Positions 1,651 to 58,431 of a stretch of DNA of 64,000 nucleotides are shown here, in pieces. Source of the DNA: Candidatus Bathyarchaeota archaeon. Lineage in GTDB: Archaea; Thermoproteota; Bathyarchaeia; 40CM-2-53-6. The DNA lies in the NCBI GenBank assembly GCA_005888745.1, contig VBBS01000027.1, forward strand, positions 55,045-119,044, in the 5' to 3' direction. Made by a program: the position numbers and the translations under genes. How positions within the stretch are numbered: position 1 is the stretch's first letter; every line of letters starts with the position of its first letter. The notes under the pieces were generated by a model. The model saw nothing but the letters and a program-made list of their open reading frames with translations. It had not been told where the DNA came from and did not search any database.

Positions 1651-2997
1651 CTATTTTACGAAAACGAGCCCTTTCCCGGAGTCTATCTCGAAAGTCTCCG
1701 TGTCAAGCTTTGACGCGGACCCGTTCAGCTTCCGGACCTTCAATTCTCGCCCGTTCGGATCAGAATCGTCCTTGTCCAGATCGATAACGCACGAAGCCGT
1801 ATCCTCCAACCACTTCAACACATCCTTAGGAGCTTTCGAGAGATCCACCGTCAGGACCAGTGTCACACTCGAATCTCGCAGCTTGTCCAGCATCTCGCTC
1901 AATCGCTTGACAAGATCCTTGGGCGCAACCTTCGCAACAACCGGATCGATGGAGTCGAACAGAATCTTGGTCTTCTCGCCGATAAACATGGAACTATTCT
2001 TGACGAGGGCGTCCTGTATCGAATCGAAGTCAAACGCCTTCTCAACATAGTAAGGCTCAAAACTGAACGAGTCGGACTGCGACGAGAACCCGTCCACCAG
2101 TAAGAACCTGTATTGAGACTCGGCCTCCGAAGGATCCGCGCCCATCTTCTTCATCTGCTCCCTGAGCGCCGCCGGCGCCTTATCGTAAGTAACGAACATG
2201 CAAGGGTTTCCATGCTTCAGAAAACTGCTCGCGAGTCCGGAGCACAAAGTCGTTTTCCCAGAGCCTGGACTGCCATTCACAACCACGAGACCGGAAGATT
2301 CGAGGTTTCCTTGGGTAAGCTCGAAGATGTGGTCGAAACTCTGAGAGACCCTTGGAGCGCTGGGACGTTTCTGAGCCTCTTCTCGAGTCGGTTTCTCCGG
2401 CTTGTCGGCAGAGGGTGGGTAGAATTTCGGTTGGACAGTTTCCTTTGTAGGTTGCTCCACAGATTCGGGAGTTTTCATGGAGCGGACTGGAGTCGCTGGC
2501 TGTGGAGGTGCAACACTTGGCTTGTCTGGCTCAGGACCTTTCTTTCCGCCTGGAATGATCGTCATCGGCCTGCTTGTGGGGGTTGCTCTGGGTGGCACCC
2601 ATTCTGGACTGCTCTGCAGCGCGAACCCTCTCGGCTGCTCCCCGCCAAACGAGTTCGCATCGGGTGGCAAATCTTTGAGCAGAGATTGAAGCAGTCTACT
2701 GAGAGAACTATCCTCGTCTGCCTGGGTAGGAGCGGGGGAGCTTCTCGGAGGCTGATAGAAACTGGTGCTCATGGGTTGAGGGCTGGGAGGAGTAGGTGAG
2801 CTTGATGAAATAGGAGGAGCTTGGACCGGAGTCGACGTGACAGGAGGGGTAGGTGCCGACGTTGATACTGATGTGGACGCATCTTCCGTTCCCTGGCCTT
2901 CTTTCTCGTCTTTCTTCTTGCGTCCGAACATGGTGAGTATTCCTATAACAGTGAAAAGGGTCCAGATGGGATCCAGACTTGCAAGTTGGACTAGCAT
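1651..2997 (-). CDS. membrane-anchored KaiC/RecA-superfamily ATPase with a long Pro/Ser/Thr-rich linker
   Basis: N-terminal hydrophobic helix (DPIWTLFTVIGILTMFG), then about 180 aa of P/S/T/Q low complexity. The C-terminal domain has Walker A VVNGSPGSGKTT and a Walker-B-like FLLVDGFSS, resembling single-domain KaiC/FlaH-like ATPases. Confidence 0.6.
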   Translation of the reverse strand: MLVQLASLDPIWTLFTVIGILTMFGRKKKDEKEGQGTEDASTSVSTSAPTPPVTSTPVQAPPISSSSPTPPSPQPMSTSFYQPPRSSPAPTQADEDSSLSRLLQSLLKDLPPDANSFGGEQPRGFALQSSPEWVPPRATPTSRPMTIIPGGKKGPEPDKPSVAPPQPATPVRSMKTPESVEQPTKETVQPKFYPPSADKPEKPTREEAQKRPSAPRVSQSFDHIFELTQGNLESSGLVVVNGSPGSGKTTLCSGLASSFLKHGNPCMFVTYDKAPAALREQMKKMGADPSEAESQYRFLLVDGFSSQSDSFSFEPYYVEKAFDFDSIQDALVKNSSMFIGEKTKILFDSIDPVVAKVAPKDLVKRLSEMLDKLRDSSVTLVLTVDLSKAPKDVLKWLEDTASCVIDLDKDDSDPNGRELKVRKLNGSASKLDTETFEIDSGKGLVFVK

Positions 2998-4841: not shown

Positions 4842-6047
4842 ATGCCGAAGCTCTTCCCCGTTCAAGAGATAGGGAGTCTCGCAAAGCCCAAGTGGAGAAC
4901 GAAGGGGTTGCGACAACAACTCTCTTCGCAGGACCTCTCCGAGGCTGAAGAATGGGCTACGAAGCTGGGAATTCAGGACTTCCATGACCGAGCAAAGAGC
5001 ATTTTCAAGACCGGTGACGACAAGATGCGGGTCAAAGCGATTCTTGAACTCTCCACCTTGTATGGGCTGCGCCTCTTCGAAATCGCGGGTGTAGACAACG
5101 AAGGTGTCGGGGGAGAACAGCAACGAGTCGAAATGTACGAGCACGTAATCAAGGCCGTACAGGGAATGAACCTCCTCGGCCACGTCCACTCCTTTGACAA
5201 CAAGTACTTCAACAAGGGAGTTGCAGAGTCGAAGATCTCTAGAAAACATCCTATCTACGTGCCTGAATTTCTTGATGTCAAGAAATACGCCCACCGGGAC
5301 GTGAAGGTGCCGATTACCGGACCGTACACACTAGTAGACTGGTCCTTTAGCGGGTACTACATCCAGAAGCAACACGCCTCCTCTCCCAAGACACGGAGGA
5401 TCGAGGCAAAGCGCGAATTCCTCCTCGATATCGTAGAGCAAGTCATACGACCCGAGATCCGAGACCTAGTTGATGCGGGAGCCTCTTGGATACAGATAGA
5501 TGAGCCGGCGGTGACTACTCATCCAGAACCTCAGGAAATGGAGCTTTTCGTTGAGGCGTGGAATGAAACGGTCAAAGGGTTCAACTGCAAATTCAGTGAC
5601 CACACGTGCTACCCATCCGAGATAGGATACAAAGTGCTCTCGGAATACGCGCCGAAGCTAGACAAGTGCGACCAGCTCGCGTTGGAGTTCGCCAACCGAG
5701 ACACTTCGCGTCTTGGAGTCGACAAGGACTCGCGGGAAGGCTACGGCGACCTCAAACATTTCGTCGATGCTGGTTTCAGCGGAGAATTCGGGCTCGGTGT
5801 CGCCCACGTACACGATTTCACAGGAAACGTGTCCTCCGGTGCAGGAAAATCCGTGGGACGAGACTTTATCGAGTCTCCGGAGCTAGTGCGGGACCGTCTT
5901 CTGTTCGCTACCAGGATTGTAGGGGATCCGGCGAAAATCTGGGCGAACCCAGACTGTGGACTTCGGACCAGAACTTGGGATGTGGCCTTCGCGAAGCTCG
6001 CAAACGTCACGCATGGAGCCGAACTGGCAAGGGAGACATACCAGTGA
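4842..6047 (+). CDS. metE: cobalamin-independent methionine synthase catalytic-domain protein (MetE C-terminal type)
   Basis: Zn-ligand pattern of MetE: DHTCY (H-x-C), LALEFAN (Glu) and NPDCGLRTR (Cys). The N-terminus EIGSLAKPKW is typical of short archaeal MetE homologues. Confidence 0.75.
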   Translation: MPKLFPVQEIGSLAKPKWRTKGLRQQLSSQDLSEAEEWATKLGIQDFHDRAKSIFKTGDDKMRVKAILELSTLYGLRLFEIAGVDNEGVGGEQQRVEMYEHVIKAVQGMNLLGHVHSFDNKYFNKGVAESKISRKHPIYVPEFLDVKKYAHRDVKVPITGPYTLVDWSFSGYYIQKQHASSPKTRRIEAKREFLLDIVEQVIRPEIRDLVDAGASWIQIDEPAVTTHPEPQEMELFVEAWNETVKGFNCKFSDHTCYPSEIGYKVLSEYAPKLDKCDQLALEFANRDTSRLGVDKDSREGYGDLKHFVDAGFSGEFGLGVAHVHDFTGNVSSGAGKSVGRDFIESPELVRDRLLFATRIVGDPAKIWANPDCGLRTRTWDVAFAKLANVTHGAELARETYQ

Positions 6048-6949
6048 GACTAGGTGATCGGGCGAGGCGTCATAACCTCGTTACGGTTGAACTTATTCCG
6101 GACAGAGTGGTTACTAGCGATTTGGCTCTCCTTAGGGGAAGAGTTGACGCTATCACCGTTCCGGCCTTGCGGAATGGCCATAATGACCCAAGTTATCCAA
6201 AGTCTTTCGCGATAACGCCCCAACGCCGAAGTCTTGCTTCCGCATCTATCATCAATAAGGCTGGGATAACCGCTGTTCCCTCGCTAACATGTCGTGATTG
6301 CAGCAGGCTGGACTTGTCAACTGTCTCGAACCAAGTGGAACAAGGGCTTGAGAACGTACTGATAGTCTACGGGGACCCTTATCCAGAGCCTCGTCCCGGG
6401 ACCTATGAGTTCACCAAAACGAACGAGCTAATTCGGGAGGTCTCCTCCCTAAACGACGGAAACGACCCATGCATTGGGGCAGTGACAAACCAACACGCTG
6501 ACAACAGGGAAGGCGAAATCTCCCGAACGATATCACGAGTAGACGCGGGCGCGGACTTTATTGTCACAAACGTCGCCTTCGACTCGGAGAGTGTACTTGA
6601 CCACAGGGATTCCCTACTGGAAGCAGGGTTAGACGTGCCACTCTTCATTCAAGTCTCTATTCCGCTCAACCTAGACAATGTGTTGTTTGTGAGCCAGAAA
6701 TTCGACATACCCGTCCCGGCTCAGGTCAGGAGAAAACTTCTGGAGGATCCGACTGGAGGAAGTCTCGCTGTTGCCGCTGATGCCTACGAGGCCCTACGTG
6801 GAGAAGCGAATGGTATTCACTTCTCATACCTGTTCCGACAACGAAATCCGATTCCCACTTATCGCCATCTGCTGGAGATAATTGGGATAGCAGGCCCGAC
6901 ACTGGCTCCGCTAGCCACGTCTCCTGTGAAAACATATCCCGTTGTCTAG
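6044..6949 (+). CDS. methylenetetrahydrofolate reductase (MetF)-like protein
   Basis: VELIP...LTCRDCSRLDL..ENVLIVYGDPY..GAVTNQH..GADFIVTNVAFDSE follows the MTHFR TIM-barrel pattern. In-frame GTG 6044 overlaps the upstream TGA (GTGA). The long track ORF from 5606 is an overprinted extension. Confidence 0.65.
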   Translation: MRLGDRARRHNLVTVELIPDRVVTSDLALLRGRVDAITVPALRNGHNDPSYPKSFAITPQRRSLASASIINKAGITAVPSLTCRDCSRLDLSTVSNQVEQGLENVLIVYGDPYPEPRPGTYEFTKTNELIREVSSLNDGNDPCIGAVTNQHADNREGEISRTISRVDAGADFIVTNVAFDSESVLDHRDSLLEAGLDVPLFIQVSIPLNLDNVLFVSQKFDIPVPAQVRRKLLEDPTGGSLAVAADAYEALRGEANGIHFSYLFRQRNPIPTYRHLLEIIGIAGPTLAPLATSPVKTYPVV

Positions 6950-6983: not shown

Positions 6984-7580
6984 TTAACTGTCTTGCTTGG
7001 CTGTCTCGACCGGTAGTGGAGCGTCTTCCCCAAGCTGGAGTACTTTCTTCAGTTCTTTTTTCATGAGTGATGGGTCATGGTTGAGATTGAAGTAGTCTGC
7101 GAACGTTGTAGTCGTCCTTAGCATTCTGGTTCTTCCGATCCTCTCGTCATTAATCAGGTCCATGTCCTTCAGCTGTTTCACATGGCCGTAGGCCAGTTTA
7201 CCGCGAACCCGTACCACGTAGGACTGGGTGACAGGCTGCTTCAGAGCTATGAATGATAACGTCCGAAGGGGTCCTGGTGTTAGAAGCGGTCTGTTCGCCA
7301 GTTTTCGAACGTGCTTAGCGAATTCTGCCTTTAGCTGCATGACAAAGCGTCCGTCGGGAAGTTCCACGACTTGAATCGGACTACTGGCGGTTTTGTAACG
7401 TTCAGAAACCGCCGTTGCGATTCCGCGTATCTTGTCCTCTGATCTAGCGCCTACGACAGACCCGATCATCTTCAGGTCTAGTGGTCTTCCGGATACGTAC
7501 AGTGCAGCCTCGCAGAGCTGCTGCTGTAGGTCAGCAGTTTTCTGCTGAGCTGTGTTAGTCGAAACTTGTGTTTCCGTCGT
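6984..7580 (-). CDS. scpB: segregation and condensation protein B (ScpB)
   Basis: Winged-helix ScpB pattern. The family N-terminal motif (EAALYVSGRPLDL) is encoded upstream of the first ATG (7469). The only start-like codons in the open 38-codon extension are ACG 7580 and ACG 7577. The start is uncertain. Confidence 0.75.
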   Translation of the reverse strand, partial: TTETQVSTNTAQQKTADLQQQLCEAALYVSGRPLDLKMIGSVVGARSEDKIRGIATAVSERYKTASSPIQVVELPDGRFVMQLKAEFAKHVRKLANRPLLTPGPLRTLSFIALKQPVTQSYVVRVRGKLAYGHVKQLKDMDLINDERIGRTRMLRTTTTFADYFNLNHDPSLMKKELKKVLQLGEDAPLPVETAKQDS

Positions 7581-8232
7581 CTCTCAGCTCGATTTCGATA
7601 TCACCGAACTCTAAAGGCTGGGCGAGGCCCACTCTTCCTTCTACTGCCAAGAATAGCAGCATGATGAACATTCTGACCGCTTCGAGAGGGTCTCCCTTTC
7701 CAAGGAGGGTTAGGAAGGACAATTTTGTTCGCGCGGATCCAGCTTTTGCTACTAGTCTCTGGAGAAACGCTTTGATATTCTCTTCAATCTTGACGAGGAA
7801 ATCGTCGACTTGTTCAAACACCTCGGGCGTCCTGAGAACCATCTGTGCGTTTGCCGGGAGCATTCTCTCCGCCGTCAACACCTCCAGTAATCCTTTGATG
7901 ACTTCCTCAACAGATGTGGTTGTCGACTCGTAGCGTAAGGGAAAGGATAGGGGAGGGGGAACGAAGTCTGTCGGCCTCTCGAGGGGGGGCTTCGGCGGTT
8001 CCTCCATCTTGAGGATTAGTTCTGATTTCATGCGCAGAAGGATTGCTGAAGAGAGAAGGGCTGTCCCAGAAACGGAGAAGTCGATGAACCCTCGACCCCT
8101 CATCTCATGAAGAAGCTCCTCCAGTATGTTTGCGAGGTTTACGTCCCACGGTTTGACGCGGTGAAGATGGATGAGGTCGAAGAGAACGGCATATGGTGCC
8201 TTCAGCCAGTACGCCTCTTCGTGAAGCGTCAA
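7555..8232 (-). CDS. scpA: segregation and condensation protein A (ScpA, kleisin)
   Basis: LFDLIHLHRVKPWDVNLANILEELL and the C-terminal winged helix are typical of ScpA. The start overlaps the smc stop by 4 nt. Confidence 0.8.
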   Translation of the reverse strand: MTLHEEAYWLKAPYAVLFDLIHLHRVKPWDVNLANILEELLHEMRGRGFIDFSVSGTALLSSAILLRMKSELILKMEEPPKPPLERPTDFVPPPLSFPLRYESTTTSVEEVIKGLLEVLTAERMLPANAQMVLRTPEVFEQVDDFLVKIEENIKAFLQRLVAKAGSARTKLSFLTLLGKGDPLEAVRMFIMLLFLAVEGRVGLAQPLEFGDIEIELRDDGNTSFD

Positions 8233-11200
8233 TTGTTCTCCTCCCTCGAGGGCAGGGACACGATCTGACTGCTGCCCTTGTCGATGAAGACTCCGAACAC
8301 CCTCTCCGCCCTCGATATTGTCGTATCCTTGAGCGAGATTACTATGAACTGGGACATGATACTCCTCGTCCGAAGGAGGGTCGCTAGGCGTTTTGCGTTT
8401 AACACATCCAAGTGTGCGTCAATCTCGTCCATTACGTAGAATGGCATGGGATGGATTTGTTGGAGTGCTAGAAGGTAGCAGACCGTTGAGACAGACTTCT
8501 CTCCTCCACTCGCGCTCCCAATCGTAAGCTCTGTTTTTCCGGGGAACTGAAGCAGGACGTCGAGTCCGCCTTCAAACGGGTTTTCAGGATTGTCCAGGAC
8601 CATTCTTCCGTTTCCCTCACCAGTCATCTCGCGAAAAATGCTCTGGAATGTCTCGTTGACCTTGTGGTATGCGCTCATGAACGTGTCAAGCTTCTTCCTC
8701 TCGAGCTCGTTCATGAAGTCGAGGATAGCCAGCTTCTCTCTTTCGAGTTCTCCGATCCTAACTGAGAGATGTTTGTATCCTTCTTTCTGTGATTCGTATT
8801 GTTGGGCAGCGAGCTGGTTGATAGCACCTATCTCGTCCCGTTCCTGTTCGAGGACGCGTTTCATATCTTCAGCCTCCTTGATGAGATCCGGGTGAGTCTC
8901 GAGCGGCGTCTCGAATCCAAGGCCTCTAAGTTGTCCTTTGAAGATTGTTAGTTGAGCGTCGACTTCCCTTAGGCCCGCCTTTAGATCGGTCACGCTTGCA
9001 TTGAGTGGATCCATCATTTGCAGAAGTTTCCGAGTTGCTTTTTCGACTTCCACAAACTGTTCTTCGTACTTCTTCCTCTCATCCCCAACGCTGTCCAAAT
9101 TTCGGACCAGCCGCTGCTTTTCCTCGTTGAACTTTTTCATCTCTTTCTCCAATGTTTCGAGTCGTTCGTGCGCTTCTTTGGCTCGGGCCTCTTCGCGATG
9201 AATCTCAGAGTCAAGCGAGCGCAGTTGTATTCGGATCTGGTCGATTCCCGGCCTCAGGGTCTCGAGAGTAGACTGTTGGGAGGAGAGACGTGTTTCTAGC
9301 TCGAGCTTCTCTCGGAGAATGAGTTGGTTCTCGGTGGTGGCTTGGTCTCGCTCCGTTTCGAGTTGAGAGAGCGCTGACCTTCTGGAATCAATCCTCAGCC
9401 TCGTTCTTTCCTCTTCTATGACCGCGAGCCGCCTCTTCATCTCCGCTTGTTTCTCCGCGGTCTCCTTCAACAAGACTTGTTCTTTCGCCATGGAGTTCTG
9501 GAGGCTGTCAATTCGCCGGGTCGTCTGTTGCAAGAATGTTCTTGTTCTCTCGAAACTCTTCTTGGCAAGTTCTACGTCCCTTGCCAAGGCCTCTCGGGTC
9601 TTGCTCGCGGATACTCGGTCTTCCAACAGCTCGTTTAGCTCAATCTCGATACGGTCAACGTCGGACCGTGAGCGTTGCACAACGGTCTCCAGCGATTTCA
9701 CTGTTTTCTCGAGGCTTTCAAGTGCAGTGGATCGGGGAACTAGGTTTGAGATCTCGAGCGGGGCTCTATAGTAGCCGCTCTCGAGGCCTCCTCCTGGCTC
9801 GTAAAGGTCTCCGCTGGTTACGACGCATCTTTGTCCCTTGGATGCTGTCAGGAACGCTGCTCTTTGCGTCGTGGCGAGTACAGTATCGCCGAAGACGAAT
9901 TTGACAGCGGGGGCAACTGACTTGTCGGACCGTATTACCTTCGAAAGCGGACCAATTATTCCGGAGACGTTGCCAGCGTCGGGCTCCAGATCCGAGAGTT
10001 CAAGATCTTCTATCGGAACGATCTTGACGCGTCCAAGCTTAGTACGTTTCAGGCTTTCGACGCACCGGATTGCTACCTCGAGGTTTTTCACAACTAGGGC
10101 TTTCATCCAGCCGGCGCTGGCTGCCTGTATTGCCTTACGGTATTCTTCGGGAAACTTGACGAGATCTTCTAGACGGCCGTAGACGCCTTTCAGAGCGCCT
10201 TCATCAGCCATCTCTTCGATCTTCTCGATAGCTTTGTCTTCTGCTCCCATGCTGTCCGCTAGGATCATTTGTGTGTTGAATTCCACCACGGTGACTCTTG
10301 CCTTCTTTGCGACGTCGAGGGCTTCGTCGATCTCTTTTCTGCGCTGGTCCTTGAGTTCACTGTATTCTTTTGTTTTCTGCTCGATTGATTCGAGCCGTTT
10401 TTCCTCTTCCTTCTGAAGTTTCTCCATTTCGCGGATTCTATTCTTCAGCTCTTCTGAGAGCTGGGCGAACTCTTTCTGGCGGGCTTCGAGGGTTTGCAGA
10501 TGGCTGGCGGTTAGGTCGAGTTTTGTCGAACTGCCCTTGCTTTGAGCGGTTAGGTTTGAAAGTTCCTTTCCCAGGCCGTCGATCTCGTCCTGGACTTCAC
10601 GCAGTTTCTTGGCGTCGAGGTTGAGAGACGATCGGGTGTCGGTAAGCTTTTGGCCGATTTTTTCGACCTTGAATGTGGAATCCTCTAGCTTGTCCTCTAG
10701 GATTTTCTTGTGTGAATGGAGACTTTTGATCGAGCTGGCAAGTGGTTTGACTGAGGTTTCCATCTCTTCCGCCTGTTTTGTGAAGGCTTCGCGCTGTCTT
10801 GCGCGGGTTGTGACCAGGTTCTTCGTTGTTTCCGCGGCGGATTTTGCTTCGACGATGCCCTTGCTGGCTTCTGCGATAAGTCTTTCGAGATCGAAGAGTT
10901 CTTGGTTTCCCTGGGTGACTATTTTCTCTTCGAAGCTTCGTCGGTCTTGTTCGATCTTTGCTCGCTGTTGAGTTAGGTCTTCTCTTTCGTGTCTCACCTG
11001 AGAGAGCTTGACCTGTTCCTGCTCGAGGGTCTGTGACATTTCCTGATGCCGGTTTTCGAGTGCAAGGATCTGGGCGGAGAGGATGCGCGCTTGCTGGCTG
11101 TTTATCTCGGTCTTGAGAAGATTGAACCTGAGAAGGTCGTTTCTTTCTCGTTCCAGCTGTTCTATTCTCTGTCTCACCTCATCAACTCTCGCAGCGGCGA

Positions 11201-11765
11201 CTTTGAGGTTCAGATCGGCCTCTTGTAATTGCACTCTTGCCTCGGCCTTCTTTGTCTCGAAGGTTCCGATTCCGATTAGGCTTTCAAGAATCCTTCTTCG
11301 TTCTTCTGTACTGATCTCCGCGAGGCGAGTGATGGCGTGTTGTGAAATAAGGTTGAAGCCGGTGACTTGGATGTCGGCTGAGCTCATTATGTCCTGGACT
11401 TGTTTTCTGGAGAGGCGTCGTCCGTTAAGGCGGTAGATTCCTTCTCCGCCTTTCGAGAACTCTCTGGATATAGTTACGAGGTCAGAATCTACGGGCAGCT
11501 TTCGGTCACTGTTGTCGAACTGCACTGCCACGTAAGCGGATCGTGCTCCTTCGCCCTGTGACTTGTGGACTAGGTCGGATAGGCTTCTGCCTCGGAGTTC
11601 TCTGGGGCTTAGCTCACCGAGCGCGAACTTGAGACTGTCCAGGATATTGGACTTGCCCGATCCGTTGGGTCCGGTTATGACTGTGAATCCTGTTCCGAGG
11701 TTGATGGAGACCTTCTTGTTGAAGGTCTTGAATCCTCGGATGTCGATTCTCTTGATGAACACCAA
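8229..11765 (-). CDS. smc: chromosome segregation ATPase SMC
   Basis: Walker A GPNGSGKSN, two long heptad coiled-coil arms, a hinge, signature SGGEKS and Walker B FYVMDEIDAHLD. TTG 11765 or GTG 11762 could be the start. Confidence 0.95.
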   Translation of the reverse strand: MVFIKRIDIRGFKTFNKKVSINLGTGFTVITGPNGSGKSNILDSLKFALGELSPRELRGRSLSDLVHKSQGEGARSAYVAVQFDNSDRKLPVDSDLVTISREFSKGGEGIYRLNGRRLSRKQVQDIMSSADIQVTGFNLISQHAITRLAEISTEERRRILESLIGIGTFETKKAEARVQLQEADLNLKVAAARVDEVRQRIEQLERERNDLLRFNLLKTEINSQQARILSAQILALENRHQEMSQTLEQEQVKLSQVRHEREDLTQQRAKIEQDRRSFEEKIVTQGNQELFDLERLIAEASKGIVEAKSAAETTKNLVTTRARQREAFTKQAEEMETSVKPLASSIKSLHSHKKILEDKLEDSTFKVEKIGQKLTDTRSSLNLDAKKLREVQDEIDGLGKELSNLTAQSKGSSTKLDLTASHLQTLEARQKEFAQLSEELKNRIREMEKLQKEEEKRLESIEQKTKEYSELKDQRRKEIDEALDVAKKARVTVVEFNTQMILADSMGAEDKAIEKIEEMADEGALKGVYGRLEDLVKFPEEYRKAIQAASAGWMKALVVKNLEVAIRCVESLKRTKLGRVKIVPIEDLELSDLEPDAGNVSGIIGPLSKVIRSDKSVAPAVKFVFGDTVLATTQRAAFLTASKGQRCVVTSGDLYEPGGGLESGYYRAPLEISNLVPRSTALESLEKTVKSLETVVQRSRSDVDRIEIELNELLEDRVSASKTREALARDVELAKKSFERTRTFLQQTTRRIDSLQNSMAKEQVLLKETAEKQAEMKRRLAVIEEERTRLRIDSRRSALSQLETERDQATTENQLILREKLELETRLSSQQSTLETLRPGIDQIRIQLRSLDSEIHREEARAKEAHERLETLEKEMKKFNEEKQRLVRNLDSVGDERKKYEEQFVEVEKATRKLLQMMDPLNASVTDLKAGLREVDAQLTIFKGQLRGLGFETPLETHPDLIKEAEDMKRVLEQERDEIGAINQLAAQQYESQKEGYKHLSVRIGELEREKLAILDFMNELERKKLDTFMSAYHKVNETFQSIFREMTGEGNGRMVLDNPENPFEGGLDVLLQFPGKTELTIGSASGGEKSVSTVCYLLALQQIHPMPFYVMDEIDAHLDVLNAKRLATLLRTRSIMSQFIVISLKDTTISRAERVFGVFIDKGSSQIVSLPSREENN

Positions 11766-11806: not shown

Positions 11807-12589
11807 TCATCGGCCGTATCTTCTGTAGCGCCTCTGGTAGAGTCTGATGGCCCTTAAGAAATCGATTCTTCGAAACTCGGGCCAATAAACGTCTACGAAG
11901 ACCAGTTCGCTGTATGCGGATTGCCATAGGAGGAAGCCGCTTAGGCGCTCTTCGCCTGACGTCCGTATAACCAGGTCCGGGTTTGGGTTGGGGAGGTGTG
12001 CGGTGTAGAGGTATTTGTGGAATATTCCCTCATCGATGTCTTGGGGTCTCAGGTTTCCTTGGTAGACATCGTCAACGATCTTTTTGGTGGCGTCGACGAT
12101 TTCCGCTCGTCCTGTGTATGCGATTGCGATGTTTAGGAAGTGTCCTGTGTACTCGCTCGTGTCGTCTTCAAGTTTCTTCAGCGCGTCTTGGAGGCTTTCT
12201 GGGAGGAGGTCTGTTCTGCCGAGGGCTTTGACCCTGACCTTTTGTGTGTGGAGACGATTGTCTCTCCCAAGTTTTCGGGCTTCTTCCTCGACGAGTTTGA
12301 GGACGGCGTTTACTTCTTCGGCGGGCCGGTCGAAGTTTTCGGTTGAGAACGTGTAGAGGGTTAGGGTCTTGATTCCGTATTCGAGGCACCAGTCCAGCAC
12401 TTCTTCTCCAACCTTCGCGCCAATAGTGTGTCCGTCGTTGGGCCGGAGAGCTTTTTCCACGGCCCATCTTCTGTTACCGTCTAGTATTATTCCAATATGT
12501 TCAGGTAGCGGTTTTCCCTTGACCTGCTCGGTGAGCCATTTTTCATAGGCGGTGTATACTCCTGCTATTCTGAGTAGGCTGTCTAACAC
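11807..12589 (-). CDS. uppS: cis-prenyltransferase (undecaprenyl-diphosphate synthase family)
   Basis: GIILDGNRRWA, the RTSGEERLSGFLLWQSAYSEL motifs and the C-terminal RRYG. Confidence 0.9.
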   Translation of the reverse strand: MLDSLLRIAGVYTAYEKWLTEQVKGKPLPEHIGIILDGNRRWAVEKALRPNDGHTIGAKVGEEVLDWCLEYGIKTLTLYTFSTENFDRPAEEVNAVLKLVEEEARKLGRDNRLHTQKVRVKALGRTDLLPESLQDALKKLEDDTSEYTGHFLNIAIAYTGRAEIVDATKKIVDDVYQGNLRPQDIDEGIFHKYLYTAHLPNPNPDLVIRTSGEERLSGFLLWQSAYSELVFVDVYWPEFRRIDFLRAIRLYQRRYRRYGR

Positions 12590-48077: not shown

Positions 48078-49235
48078 GTCTTAGGCCGCATCGGAATCGT
48101 TGGAGTTGGACATTCAAAGTTCGGAAAAAGGAGCGACGCCTCCCTCCGAGAGCTAGCATTCGAAGCGTACAGTTCCGCCCTAGATGACGCCGACATCGAC
48201 TCTTCAAAAATAGACGGTTCAATAGTTTGCTCCGCCACTCACTACGACAAGCAACGATCGCCTGCAGGTGTTGTTGCGGAATATCTCGGACTCAATCCCC
48301 AACCAACATTCAACGTTGAGGCAGCCTGCGCCTCCAGCGCTGTTGGCCTTCGGACCGCGTGGGCGCTTGTCTCATCAAAACTTCATGATGTGGTGGCCGT
48401 TGTGGGGGTGCAGAAGATGACCGAACTCTCCTCGGAGGAGATCCAGGAGCTCATGGGCAGAGCAGGGGACGTCATGTGGGAGTCTCCCTTCGGAACAACA
48501 ATGCCCGCATACTACGCCTCCTATGCTAACGCCCACATGGCCAAGTACGGAACTACAGAGGAACAAATGGCGCTCGTGTCGGTGAAGAACCGAAAATACG
48601 GATCCAAGAATCCTAACGCCATGTTTCAAAAACCCATCCAATTGGAAGAGGTCCTAAAATCGCGAATGGTATCTTATCCTCTAAAACTATACGATTGCTG
48701 CGCCAATGCTGACGGGGCGGCATGTCTGCTCATTACTAGTGCCGAAAAAGCAAAGAAAATTTCTGATAGACCCGTATGGATCTCCGGGCTTGGCCTGGCT
48801 TCGAGTCCCATGTCGCTTGCTGGAAGAAAAGGTCCATTGACGAGTTTCGATGCCACAAGAAATGCGGCGAGAACGGCATACGAAATGGCCAATATCAAAC
48901 CACACGACGTACATGTGGCGGAGGTTCATGACTCTTTCTCGGTAACAGAAATCATCAATTATGAAGACCTCGGATTCGCACGACCTGGAAGGGGTGCTAA
49001 GCTTCTGGAAAACCAAGGCACGGAGCTCGGCGGGAGAATCCCCGTCAACATCGACGGAGGCTTGATTTCCAAAGGCCATCCAGTCGGAGCCACAGGCGCG
49101 TCCCAGATCTTCGCATTGGTCAAACAACTACGGGGGGAAGCGGGTAGCGTTCAGGTCGACGGCGCTAAGATTGGTCTCGCACAGAACATAGGGGGAATAG
49201 GAATGTACTGCTCCGTTACGATCTTGCGCTCATGA
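48078..49235 (+). CDS. thiolase (SCP-x / archaeal acetyl-CoA C-acetyltransferase type); start codon unresolved
   Basis: The frame is open from 48063. The N-terminus RIGIVGVGHSKFGKR and the catalytic-Cys region NVEAACASS lie upstream of the first canonical start (GTG 48390). The C-terminal GHPVGATGA is also present. The start given is approximate (GTC 48078, TTA 48081 or ATC 48090). Confidence 0.85.
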   Translation, partial: VLGRIGIVGVGHSKFGKRSDASLRELAFEAYSSALDDADIDSSKIDGSIVCSATHYDKQRSPAGVVAEYLGLNPQPTFNVEAACASSAVGLRTAWALVSSKLHDVVAVVGVQKMTELSSEEIQELMGRAGDVMWESPFGTTMPAYYASYANAHMAKYGTTEEQMALVSVKNRKYGSKNPNAMFQKPIQLEEVLKSRMVSYPLKLYDCCANADGAACLLITSAEKAKKISDRPVWISGLGLASSPMSLAGRKGPLTSFDATRNAARTAYEMANIKPHDVHVAEVHDSFSVTEIINYEDLGFARPGRGAKLLENQGTELGGRIPVNIDGGLISKGHPVGATGASQIFALVKQLRGEAGSVQVDGAKIGLAQNIGGIGMYCSVTILRS

Positions 49236-49281: not shown

Positions 49282-50208
49282 TTGCAGGTGGACATTCAAG
49301 AGTTGACCCCCATTCAAAGCTTCGGCAGAAGAATTCGAGCCTATGATAAAGCCACACGCCTCGCAAAGGAAGGTCGCCCTGTCACTGAAATCTCGAAAGA
49401 GACGGGAACGCCTGACGCTACCATCAGGGGATGGCTCGTAAACGGTCGAAAACCTTGGACCCGCTGCGAACTCTTCAAACCAACGTACTCTGATCAATTA
49501 ACATATGTTATCGGTGTTTACATGGGAGACGGCTCGATTTCCCGATGGAGAAATCGTTTTTTACTGCGATTAGATGTCAAAGACAAAGAATTCGCCGATA
49601 AGTTTTCTTCAACATGCGCACATGTTCTGGGTAGGAAACCATATTCTGTGAGGCATGTCAGGGATAGGGACACATACGAGACTATCATTTCAAACGCGTC
49701 TTTCTGCAAGTTCCTCAACCGAGGCCTCACCCACCTGGATCGGTATGTACGGGAGCATCCCTCTGGCTTTGTTAGAGGTTTAGCTGATAGCGATGAGTGC
49801 CCCACTGTGACAACAACAAAAAAGCGGGGCAAACCCTGGTTCTTCGTCCAAGTTGTAGTAGCAACATCCAAGAGCATACGCTTACTGAGCTATACTCGGA
49901 CGATCCTGAGGGAATGCCTCGGACTCAAAGCGACGCTAGTGTACAAAGGCAAGCCAAGACCCAGTGTGTTCAAGAACAAGTTGCTCCGTTCAAGAAAGAG
50001 GGTCTTTGACCTTAGGATATCGCGCTTTGGTGACGTGAAACGATTCTCCCGGGTTGTTGGTTTCGAATTGGCTCGGAAACAAGAGAAGCTTGCCGCTGCT
50101 ATCTTCGTCCGTGAAGGATTTGGTTCTGGTCAGGATGCGGTGAAAGAGTGGACCCGTCGCTGGGAGCATGGCACCACTGAGTGGATTCTCAAGAAAGGAG
50201 TGGACTAG
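49282..50208 (+). CDS. LAGLIDADG homing-endonuclease-like protein with N-terminal HTH
   Basis: Motifs YVIGVYMGDGS and FVRGLADSDEC. The N-terminal EGRPVTEISKETGTPDATIRGWL is HTH-like. It sits between the thiolase and DUF35 genes. Confidence 0.7.
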   Translation: MQVDIQELTPIQSFGRRIRAYDKATRLAKEGRPVTEISKETGTPDATIRGWLVNGRKPWTRCELFKPTYSDQLTYVIGVYMGDGSISRWRNRFLLRLDVKDKEFADKFSSTCAHVLGRKPYSVRHVRDRDTYETIISNASFCKFLNRGLTHLDRYVREHPSGFVRGLADSDECPTVTTTKKRGKPWFFVQVVVATSKSIRLLSYTRTILRECLGLKATLVYKGKPRPSVFKNKLLRSRKRVFDLRISRFGDVKRFSRVVGFELARKQEKLAAAIFVREGFGSGQDAVKEWTRRWEHGTTEWILKKGVD

Positions 50209-57025: not shown

Positions 57026-58431
57026 ATGCTGATCGGGGGAGAGTGGAAGGACAGCGCAAATGGCGCTGTTTCATCAGTTCTTGATCCTTCAAACAACGTA
57101 CAAGACAGGACGCGAAAGCTGCAGTCGTGAGTGCGAAGATCGCGCTGGAGTCGGCCGGCTGGGTCGACATTGATCCCAGCAAGAGAGGGCGTCTCCTAAC
57201 TAAGCTCACAACTCTGGTCAGGGAGAATTCAGAGCAGCTGGCAAAGCTTGAAACCATGAGTGAGGGGAAGACTCTCCGAGAGTCTAAGGGTGATGTTGCC
57301 TGGGCGGCCAGGGCGTTCGAGTACTGGGCAGGACTGGCGGACAAGGTTGAAGGAGAAACCATACCTGTTCCGCCGAGACGTCTGAACTACACTCTTCGTG
57401 AGCCGCTAGGCGTAACGGTCCATATTGTTCCTTGGAATTATCCGATCGCGCTTGCTGCTAGAAGTTTGGCACCGGCAATTGCAGCAGGGAATACTGTTGT
57501 CGTGAAACCGTCTGAGATTACTCCTCTTACAGCGATTATGCTGGGAGATCTAGCGCTTAAGGCCGGCATCCCCAAAGGTGTTATCAACGTTGTAACTGGA
57601 TCAGGTGCTGAAGTAGGCGAAGCACTTGTGTCGGACCCGCGAGTGGACGGGATAGTTTTCACAGGGTCCGCTGAGACAGGAACGCAGGTGATGGAGTCAG
57701 CCGCGAAAAATGTTACAAGGGTACTTCTGGAGTTAGGCGGTAAGAACCCGCATATTGTCTTCCCTGACGCCGACTTGGCGAAGGCCGCTAAGAGCGTGAA
57801 GGAAGGCATTTTCACCAATGCTGGACAAATGTGCTGGGCCGGATCTAGGGCATTCATTCACGAGAGCATATACGATGATTTCGTAAAGGACCTCGTCGCC
57901 AAGACCCGAGCGATAAAGGTCGGGCCTGGAAGAGATGATACCAGCGAGATGGGACCCTTAGCCTCAAAGGCTCGGCAAGACGTGGTTCTCGGGTTTGTCA
58001 AGGACGGCCTCGAAGAAGGGGCAAGTCTTCTCTGCGGGGGGAAGAAACCATCTGACCCAGGACTGCAGAAGGGAAATTTCGTCGAGCCCACCATTTTCGA
58101 GAACGTCAACGGGAAGATGAAAATCGGGTGCGACGAGATTTTCGGACCTGTTCTGGGCCTTACCCAGTTCAAGACTCTCGACGAGGTTGTTGCTATGGCC
58201 AATGAGACAGATTATGGACTATACGGGGGAGTCTGGACGAGCAATTTGAAAGTCGCTCATGAACTCGCTGTTCGTCTCCAGGTCGGTGGACTAGCCGTGA
58301 ACGAGTATTTGGTGACCTTTCCGCAGACCCCGTTCGGCGGCTACAAGGACAGCGGAATAGGACATGAAAACGGCATACGCTCGTTAGAATTCTACACACG
58401 AACCAAGAATGTCTCGATAAACCTTTCCTAG
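57026..58431 (+). CDS. NAD(P)-dependent aldehyde dehydrogenase, N-terminus frameshifted
   Basis: The ELGGKNP and GQMCWAGSR catalytic motifs lie in the main ORF (57127..58431). The family N-terminus MLIGGEWKDS...LDPS is in another frame starting at ATG 57026. Confidence 0.8.

Follow-up and report, generated by a model that had tools for sequence, protein, structure and literature searches.

The stretch of DNA analysed here (64,000 nucleotides (nt) of contig VBBS01000027.1 from a Candidatus Bathyarchaeota archaeon; hereafter the window) carries the genes smc, scpA and scpB in consecutive and overlapping order on its minus strand. They form an operon, and the adjacency to scpA and smc is that expected of a gene for ScpB. 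The first gene of the operon, smc (8229..11765; 1178 amino acids (aa); Pfam SMC_N and SMC_hinge), begins with TTG, as does smc in 19 of 19 distinct relatives. The second, scpA (7555..8232; 225 aa; Pfam SMC_ScpA), has a TTG start (8232-8230) that overlaps the smc stop codon as TTGA and is preceded by a GGAGGAG Shine-Dalgarno (SD) motif, and it ends with TAA at 7557-7555. The subject of this analysis is the third gene, scpB. Its first canonical start codon is an internal ATG (7467..7469), which gene callers use to give a 161-aa product; the comparisons described below suggest that translation begins upstream of it, at a position occupied by ACG.

The scpB frame is closed upstream by an in-frame TGA (7584..7586), after which it reads GAG ACG ACG GAA ACA CAA ... 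CTG AAG ATG(7469), with the translation ETTETQVSTNTAQQKTADLQQQLCEAALYVSGRPLDLKM. Between 7583 and 7470 on the minus strand, none of the three frames contains ATG, GTG or TTG (together referred to below as NTG). The second ACG (7575..7577) is, by orthology, the likeliest initiation codon. From there, the inferred full-length scpB (6984..7577) would run for 197 codons to the TAA at 6986-6984, and 35 codons (7470..7574) would form an N-terminal extension ahead of the internal ATG, which encodes Met37. The 5′ end of scpB, in the +1 frame relative to scpA, would overlap the scpA 3′ end by 23 nt (7555..7577), or by 26 nt if counted from the first ACG (7578..7580). An earlier note on this DNA had described the frame as open from 7583, after the TGA at 7586-7584, with the two ACG codons, no ATG, GTG or TTG before ATG 7469, and an overlap with scpA of about 25 nt. 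These coordinates and frames, together with that of the scpA stop, all match the sequence, and the lack of canonical start codons extends beyond the scpB frame to the other two. The chance of 38 codons without NTG is very roughly 10-15%, so that such a run is not improbable alone; it gains its weight here from homology, the ATG of orthologues falling exactly at 7577-7575.

The gene itself is an ordinary ScpB, and the unusual part is its start. Pfam SMC_ScpB (PF04079) was matched with an E-value of 5e-31 (107.8 bits against a cut-off of 27.4) over residues 23-172 of the 199-codon open frame. This match starts from profile position 2, and the domain thus begins 16 residues before Met 7469, which bears out the suggestion of the earlier note that a conserved N-terminal part of ScpB lies upstream of this ATG. 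Searching with the protein sequence retrieved hundreds of close homologues, mostly of 197-198 aa and covering 98% of the open frame. Across 98% of its length, the ScpB of the window is 94-85% identical to the 197-aa proteins of relatives.

The scpB start position in related Bathyarchaeia

The ScpB proteins of relatives begin with MEAQVST, METQVS or MMEAQ. About 50 relatives with an ATG start were identified, all of them soil Bathyarchaeia, and the nearest genomes are metagenome-assembled genomes (MAGs) from grassland soil. Of 66 junction sequences, 52 have this ATG opposite the ACG at 7577-7575 (33 of the 37 distinct ones), which makes the two codons orthologous in sequence alignments, and the usual junction reads TGA AAA ACG ATG GAA GCN CAA GTT TCG ACT. 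The first ACG thus already precedes the ATG in most ATG-bearing relatives, with a few reading ATG ATG, ACC ATG or ACA ATG instead, and the tandem ACG of the window consists of one mutated start and one ancestral upstream codon. Where the earlier note had regarded both ACG codons as start-like, the description suits the second, which occupies the orthologous start, and not the first. Loss of the ATG required a single T>C change at 7576, which in the frame of the overlapping scpA is synonymous (GAT>GAC), and the 23-nt overlap is identical in 66 of 66 junction sequences. Among the relatives compared, which include the scpA-scpB junctions that the earlier note had proposed to examine, there is no orthologue that begins at the equivalent of Met 7469. 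Nor is this methionine conserved, being replaced by isoleucine in one relative (L088; labels of this kind denote related loci) and by threonine in more distant ones. Together with the alignment of the relatives' ATG, this supports the claim that translation must begin upstream of 7469.

Part of this collection was obtained by scanning metagenomes with a DNA pattern in which the start codon was left free; the pattern demanded the TGA and CAAGTTTCGACTA, and therefore retrieves close relatives only. It yielded 48 true junctions, of which 44 carry ATG and four ACG. Genomes found independently of the pattern have a stop codon (TGA, TAA or TAG) one or two codons 5′ of the scpB ATG. On the scpB tree, parsimony assigned 0, 3 and 0 changes to the three positions of the start codon, compared with 4.4 changes per site at four-fold sites and 0.48 at first and second codon positions. 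By this comparison of sequences, the scpB start codon is conserved no better than an average amino-acid-determining position.

Several apparent further losses of the scpB start were rejected. A cluster of 41 members called as 161-aa ScpB (P0085) could have represented many independent losses, and only one of these (L009) survives. Short ScpB calls of 161 or 186 aa in L125-L127 were cut by contig ends, and in L128 and L129 an upstream ATG ATG is present and the caller took an internal TTG. The sizes of truncated-protein clusters are not usable as counts of start-codon loss. In the surviving case, L009, which is known from a single assembly, the start position is occupied by AGG; its sister L088, 98% identical, has ATG.

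Given the metagenomic source of the sequence, the ACG might be an artefact of sequencing or assembly. Ten contigs in ENA, JGI and Logan assemblies, however, encode exactly the 161-aa product that starts at ATG 7469, and the junction is base-for-base identical in the eight of them compared. The soils represented include those of JGI 3300026325, 3300006794 and 3300005167 and of ENA ERZ28573795. The same ACG ACG junction occurs in at least nine other contigs (L001-L008 and L089), which stem from different samples and pipelines and are held in three archives, so that the read-level correction to a canonical start that the earlier note had allowed for does not apply. A second, diverged sister lineage (L060, L073 and L098) also has ACG, in the sequence AAG ACG ACG GAA GCA; over 3.2 kb of DNA, its identity to the window is about 92% (approximately 8% divergence). 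Sequencing error is excluded.

Two further routes to a canonical start were considered and discarded. An insertion or deletion could have moved the start in from another frame; the interval 7583-7470 is free of NTG in all three frames, and the other assemblies are identical. Initiation at an in-frame GTG (7604) followed by read-through of the TGA at 7586 is not particular to the ACG copies: ATG-bearing relatives share both the GTG and the stop, and in some relatives TAA or TAG replaces the TGA.

Coding constraint and structure upstream of Met37

The 28 codons from the scpA stop to ATG 7469 lie outside the dual-coding overlap and were used as the region for a coding test. Here the window and L098 differ by seven synonymous and no non-synonymous changes (synonymous divergence, dS, of 0.44), and L098 and L060, both with ACG, by four and none (dS 0.22). 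Over the whole of scpB, L098 differs from L060 and L073 by 14 synonymous and four non-synonymous changes, and the whole-gene ratio of non-synonymous to synonymous divergence (dN/dS) is around 0.1, like that of ATG-bearing pairs. Every ACG copy is intact, with 199 open codons and no stop or frameshift. In the ACG lineages the extension evolves as coding sequence (dN = 0, dS 0.22-0.44), within the limits that the age of the mutation sets on such a test, and is conserved at the protein level. From these substitution patterns, the extension upstream of ATG 7469 is probably still translated.

In an AlphaFold model, residues 10-29, among them EAALYVSG, form the first helix of the N-terminal winged-helix domain, with a block-mean predicted local distance difference test score (pLDDT) of 71-76. 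The domain as a whole is modelled as helix-helix-helix-strand-strand (block-mean pLDDT 71-92), and Met37 opens the second helix. The C-terminal half of the protein scored below 65, and the second winged-helix domain is not confirmed by the model. The structure of a ScpB homologue from Pyrococcus yayanosii (PDB 6JUV) nonetheless aligns with residues 19-181 (E 6.5e-33), covering both domains, and its N-terminal domain makes the dimer (PMC7055376). Judging by the model, a product from Met 7469 would lack core helix 1 of the dimerising domain, the helix that carries EAALYVSGRPL. The missing core helix and the selection on the upstream codons together indicate a start upstream, at or near the ACG. 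Full-length ScpB is predicted to yield (M/T)ETQVSTNTAQQK from its residues 1-36, with (M)ETQVSTNTAQQK and TADLQQQLCEAALYVSGR as tryptic candidates.

Non-NTG start positions in other genes

The window was screened for long open reading frames (ORFs) whose conserved domain precedes the first NTG codon, and start codons were compared across approximately 26 gene families in a few dozen genomes. At least five of these families have non-NTG starts in at least one lineage; around twenty others have NTG starts only. The anomaly that the earlier note had detected at scpB is real, and it is not peculiar to this gene, nor to overlapping genes.

A thiolase gene on the plus strand (48081..49235) provides a second case in the window. 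Its frame is open from 48063, and the Thiolase_N match covers residues 12-227 of the open frame, in which the first NTG is codon 109. Thiolases of relatives have 384 aa and begin with MSRIGIVG or MGRIGIVG. The orthologous start position is occupied by ATG in L108, CTG in five contigs (L109-L113), ACG in L114 and TTA (48081-48083) in the window; L114 is an NCBI MAG, and the thiolase ACG is known from this one assembly. Each of these codons lies some 9-10 nt 3′ of a GGAGC motif, and the gene does not overlap its neighbour. Just 3′ of the thiolase gene in the window is a free-standing LAGLIDADG-like ORF (49282-50208, plus strand; 308 aa). Such an ORF also lies between the thiolase gene and its partner gene (zf-ChsH2/OB fold) in L115 and L116, and is not there in L119-L123; with similar ORFs elsewhere in relatives, it looks mobile.

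Within the smc operon, scpA begins with TTG in 25 of 37 sequences and with CTG in the other 12, where the overlap with smc reads CTGA, and at least three changes are needed on the tree. The CTG loci include L011, L013, L015, L024, L065, L066, L082, L085, L099 and L106. The CTG relatives offer no alternative start, as neither the open frame nor the next 30 codons contain a further NTG. The uppS gene (11807-12589, minus strand), which overlaps the end of an upstream phosphorylase gene by 7 nt, has a GTG start in the window. Across 17 distinct uppS sequences the start is CTG in 12, ATG in four and GTG in one, with no alternative start before the conserved HIGIILDGNR motif, and CTG appears to be the common start state of this gene in the clade. 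A gene for a KaiC-like ATPase (1651-2997, minus strand) begins with ATG in the window and with ATA in L060 and L073, a lineage that also carries the scpB ACG.

The scpB start varies beyond the ACG lineages. In four loci of more distant Bathyarchaeia (L025, L026, L046 and L047) the scpA-scpB overlap is 35-40 nt, and canonical starts before the EAALYV motif are again missing from some copies of scpB: L025 has TTA where its sister L026 has TTG, and in L046 and L047 the only start candidates are CTG or ACG. The recurrence of non-NTG start positions across genes points to a lineage-wide tolerance of such starts, as far as orthologous alignments can tell.

Two candidates were removed from this survey. 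The methylenetetrahydrofolate reductase gene MTHFR (6044-6949, plus strand) seemed to be a third start-less gene of the window because of a 211-aa JGI call from TTG 6314. This call cuts the conserved protein short: its true start lies upstream at GTG 6044, in a GTGA overlap with the stop codon of the methionine-synthase-like gene that comes before it. A CTG at the start of NAD synthase in L123 is uninformative, as a conserved ATG lies six codons downstream.

Proposed initiation at ACG and its alternatives

We consider it probable, at roughly 60%, that full-length, 197-aa ScpB is made by near-cognate initiation at ACG, probably with coupling to scpA. Under this scenario, an ancestor of the lineage would have exchanged the ATG of scpB for ACG through the T>C transition at 7576, at no cost to the protein encoded by scpA. 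The ACG would be read by the normal initiator tRNA, likely at reduced efficiency, and ribosomes finishing scpA would be the likely supply of initiating subunits (translational coupling), in a lineage of soil Bathyarchaeia that seems tolerant of non-NTG starts generally. We infer three points here, namely that ACG is decoded as a start, that coupling assists and that expression is lowered. A tRNA search of the window, where an initiator tRNA was of interest, found no tRNA.

Starts of this kind are known outside the archaea. In eukaryotes and their viruses, ACG or CUG starts, for example, are decoded by Met-tRNAi under the control of eIF1 and eIF2. In bacteria, rare starts include the AUU of infC and pcnB, and translation table 11 allows CUG, AUC and AUA and excludes ACG. 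The scpB start resembles the eukaryotic and viral cases in lying one base away from AUG and preceding a protein-conserved extension, and the CTG, ACG and ATA found in this clade are among the codons that work there, with homologous factors. It differs in being internal to an operon and overlapping the upstream gene, free of scanning or Kozak context, and its ACG is suggested as a start by evolutionary comparison. With the bacterial cases it shares an essential-type gene whose weak start is missed by standard gene callers; those are isolated, however, whereas here at least five of approximately 26 families are affected, and ACG falls outside table 11. In E. coli such codons support well under 1% of AUG initiation, according to a figure of Hecht 2017 as quoted in PMC10666635. 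Archaeal start selection is carried out by the initiation factors aIF1, aIF1A and aIF2, homologues of the eukaryotic factors that allow near-cognate initiation at a low level (PMC7531240; PMC4705826). Ribosome profiling in Haloferax placed approximately 30% of putative new initiation sites at near-cognate codons, which the authors set aside (PMC7261190). The literature searched contained no report of non-canonical starts in Bathyarchaeia. Non-NTG starts as rare bacterial cases and near-cognate initiation in eukaryotes are already known; what appears to be new, on comparative evidence, is that an archaeal gene has an ACG start with evolutionary support, within a clade of recurring non-NTG starts.

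How far coupling to scpA contributes is less certain. The sequence upstream of the scpB start (GAGCTGA(A/G)AGACG) contains nothing like GGAGG, whereas scpA, uppS and the thiolase gene each have such a motif. Compensating SD-like changes 5′ of the ACG were considered and rejected, as the upstream sequences of L098, L060 and L073 are identical to that of the ATG-bearing relative L012. Coupled genes are expected to have a start that lies within a preceding, co-directional ORF and lacks an SD motif, as that of scpB does. The distance fits less well, with the scpB start 20 nt upstream of the scpA stop, compared with −4 or −1 in the tested cases. Restart near a stop codon is also known from caliciviruses, where AUG is not required and a viral RNA element must pair with 18S rRNA. 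The scpB junction would be like this system in the closeness of restart and stop and the tolerance of non-AUG codons, and unlike it in that caliciviruses depend on the viral element, no counterpart of which was found at scpB, where no search aimed at one was made; such elements (termination upstream ribosome-binding sites, TURBS) are mentioned in PMC10666635. The termination-reinitiation coupling described by Huber et al. (2019, 2023) is similar in that co-directional overlapping genes encode parts of one complex and the downstream start has no SD motif. The cases studied have 4-nt or 1-nt overlaps and canonical starts, unlike scpB, and the thiolase and KaiC-like genes are not overlapped at all. 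At −23 nt, the overlap does belong among the long ‘phase 1’ overlaps, a class found by Huber et al. to be over-represented (PMC10666635). In the gene pairs tested in Haloferax and E. coli, coupling needs very short distances (PMC10666635), which makes its contribution at an overlap of 23 nt uncertain. Furthermore, since the thiolase and KaiC-like genes are uncoupled, coupling cannot be the sole factor.

Several observations weigh against initiation at ACG as set out above. Reviews name only AUG, GUG and UUG as archaeal starts (PMC7531240; PMC4705826), and Haloferax coupling drops steeply with an intergenic spacer and is lost within approximately 20-40 nt, though these data concern spacers and not long overlaps (PMC10666635). 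The TTA of the window's thiolase differs from AUG at two positions, which places it outside the near-cognate codons, so another codon must serve there. The age of the ACG is also poorly constrained. A 1.3-kb tree separates the two ACG lineages, implying two origins, while a 3.2-kb tree joins them, implying one; bootstrap support is 52% against 44%, with 24 informative sites on either side. As trees do not separate these origins, some of the synonymous-only divergence could predate the mutation, and the window lineage is invariant at the junction, so that the age of its ACG cannot be dated. Finally, there appears to be some gene decay in this genome: an aldehyde dehydrogenase gene (about 57026-58431, plus strand) is split across two frames, its first 24 codons running from ATG 57026, by a frameshifting deletion of 25 nt relative to L117, located after ...CCTTCAAACAAC. 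This gene is a pseudogene or reflects an assembly error.

The dating and decay observations leave room for a recent loss of function, in which no full-length ScpB would be made, only the 161-aa product from ATG 7469 or none, and the extension would not yet have decayed. Such a loss might be tolerated, since protein work in Thermococcales suggested that many archaeal Smc complexes operate without ScpB (PMC7055376). We nevertheless regard it as unlikely. L098 and L060/L073, all with ACG, have diverged from each other, and the window from L098, by synonymous changes alone in the extension, and no ACG copy has acquired a stop or frameshift. The product from Met 7469 would be deprived of the first helix of its dimerising domain. 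Moreover, non-NTG starts are stable and widespread elsewhere in the clade, CTG being the start in the majority of distinct uppS sequences. As a caveat, a recent loss is possible for the window lineage alone, since its mutation lacks a date.

A different way of translating the extension would be a ScpA-ScpB fusion, produced by a +1 ribosomal shift within the 27 nt between the TGA at 7586 and the scpA stop at 7557. The scpB frame is indeed +1 to that of scpA, the overlap sequence ACA AGT TTC GAC TAA is strongly conserved, and the RNA of the junction (7500-7630, minus strand) is predicted to fold with −46.4 kcal/mol, more stably than shuffled sequences (z = −2.7), a prediction made for a region that codes in two frames. 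Known archaeal frameshift cases are few and dissimilar (PMC8211752). Conservation of the overlap is expected regardless under two-frame coding, and inspection of 7583-7558 revealed no slippery site, as no P-site codon in AGA GAC GAC GGA AAC ACA AGT TTC GAC re-pairs in +1. The ATG of relatives, two codons past the stop of the scpB frame, is the signature of a separate start, and we judge a fusion very improbable. Within the predicted fold, a 5-bp hairpin (GAAAC/GUUUC) starts directly after the ACG, and an Ala-to-Thr change in the window (GCA>ACA) converts one of its G-U pairs to A-U. An Rfam search of the scpA-scpB junction gave only a sub-threshold snoRNA match (E 0.76), taken as chance.

Editing of the mRNA could also restore a canonical start. 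Conversion of ACG to AUG is the classic rescue of a genomic ACG start, as in plant organelles, and C-to-U editing at 7576 would have this effect; the thiolase start of L114 is again an ACG. To our knowledge, however, mRNA editing is not known in archaea, and none was found in the literature searched. The CTG, AGG, ATA and TTA starts of other genes and lineages, moreover, are not convertible to AUG by C-to-U changes. Editing is accordingly an even more remote prospect than a fusion, and near-cognate initiation at ACG remains the explanation that we prefer.

A broader proposal is that start selection is relaxed in soil Bathyarchaeia, perhaps in the whole class, with CUG, ACG and AUA serving as working starts in a sizeable fraction of genes, either coupled or led by an SD motif. 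We advance this tentatively, at somewhat short of even odds. If correct, an archaeon would possess a eukaryote-like repertoire of near-cognate starts, and the N-termini of many MAG genes would be mis-annotated. Gene callers already truncate the proteins discussed here: ScpB is given as 161 aa, devoid of its first helix, and the thiolase as 281 aa in the window, 360 aa in relatives or, in the NCBI annotation of a window-identical protein (P0121), from an ATC at 48090. Annotations of Bathyarchaeia MAGs, and protein families derived from them, would therefore carry systematic N-terminal errors. If the reading proposed for scpB is correct, a natural ACG start, along with a majority CTG start, under purifying selection would extend the archaeal set of AUG, GUG and UUG. 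It would also bear on the evolution of initiation stringency, the archaeal start factors being homologous to eIF1 and eIF2. The scpA-scpB junction would then offer a compact test case for whether coupled reinitiation relaxes the choice of start codon.

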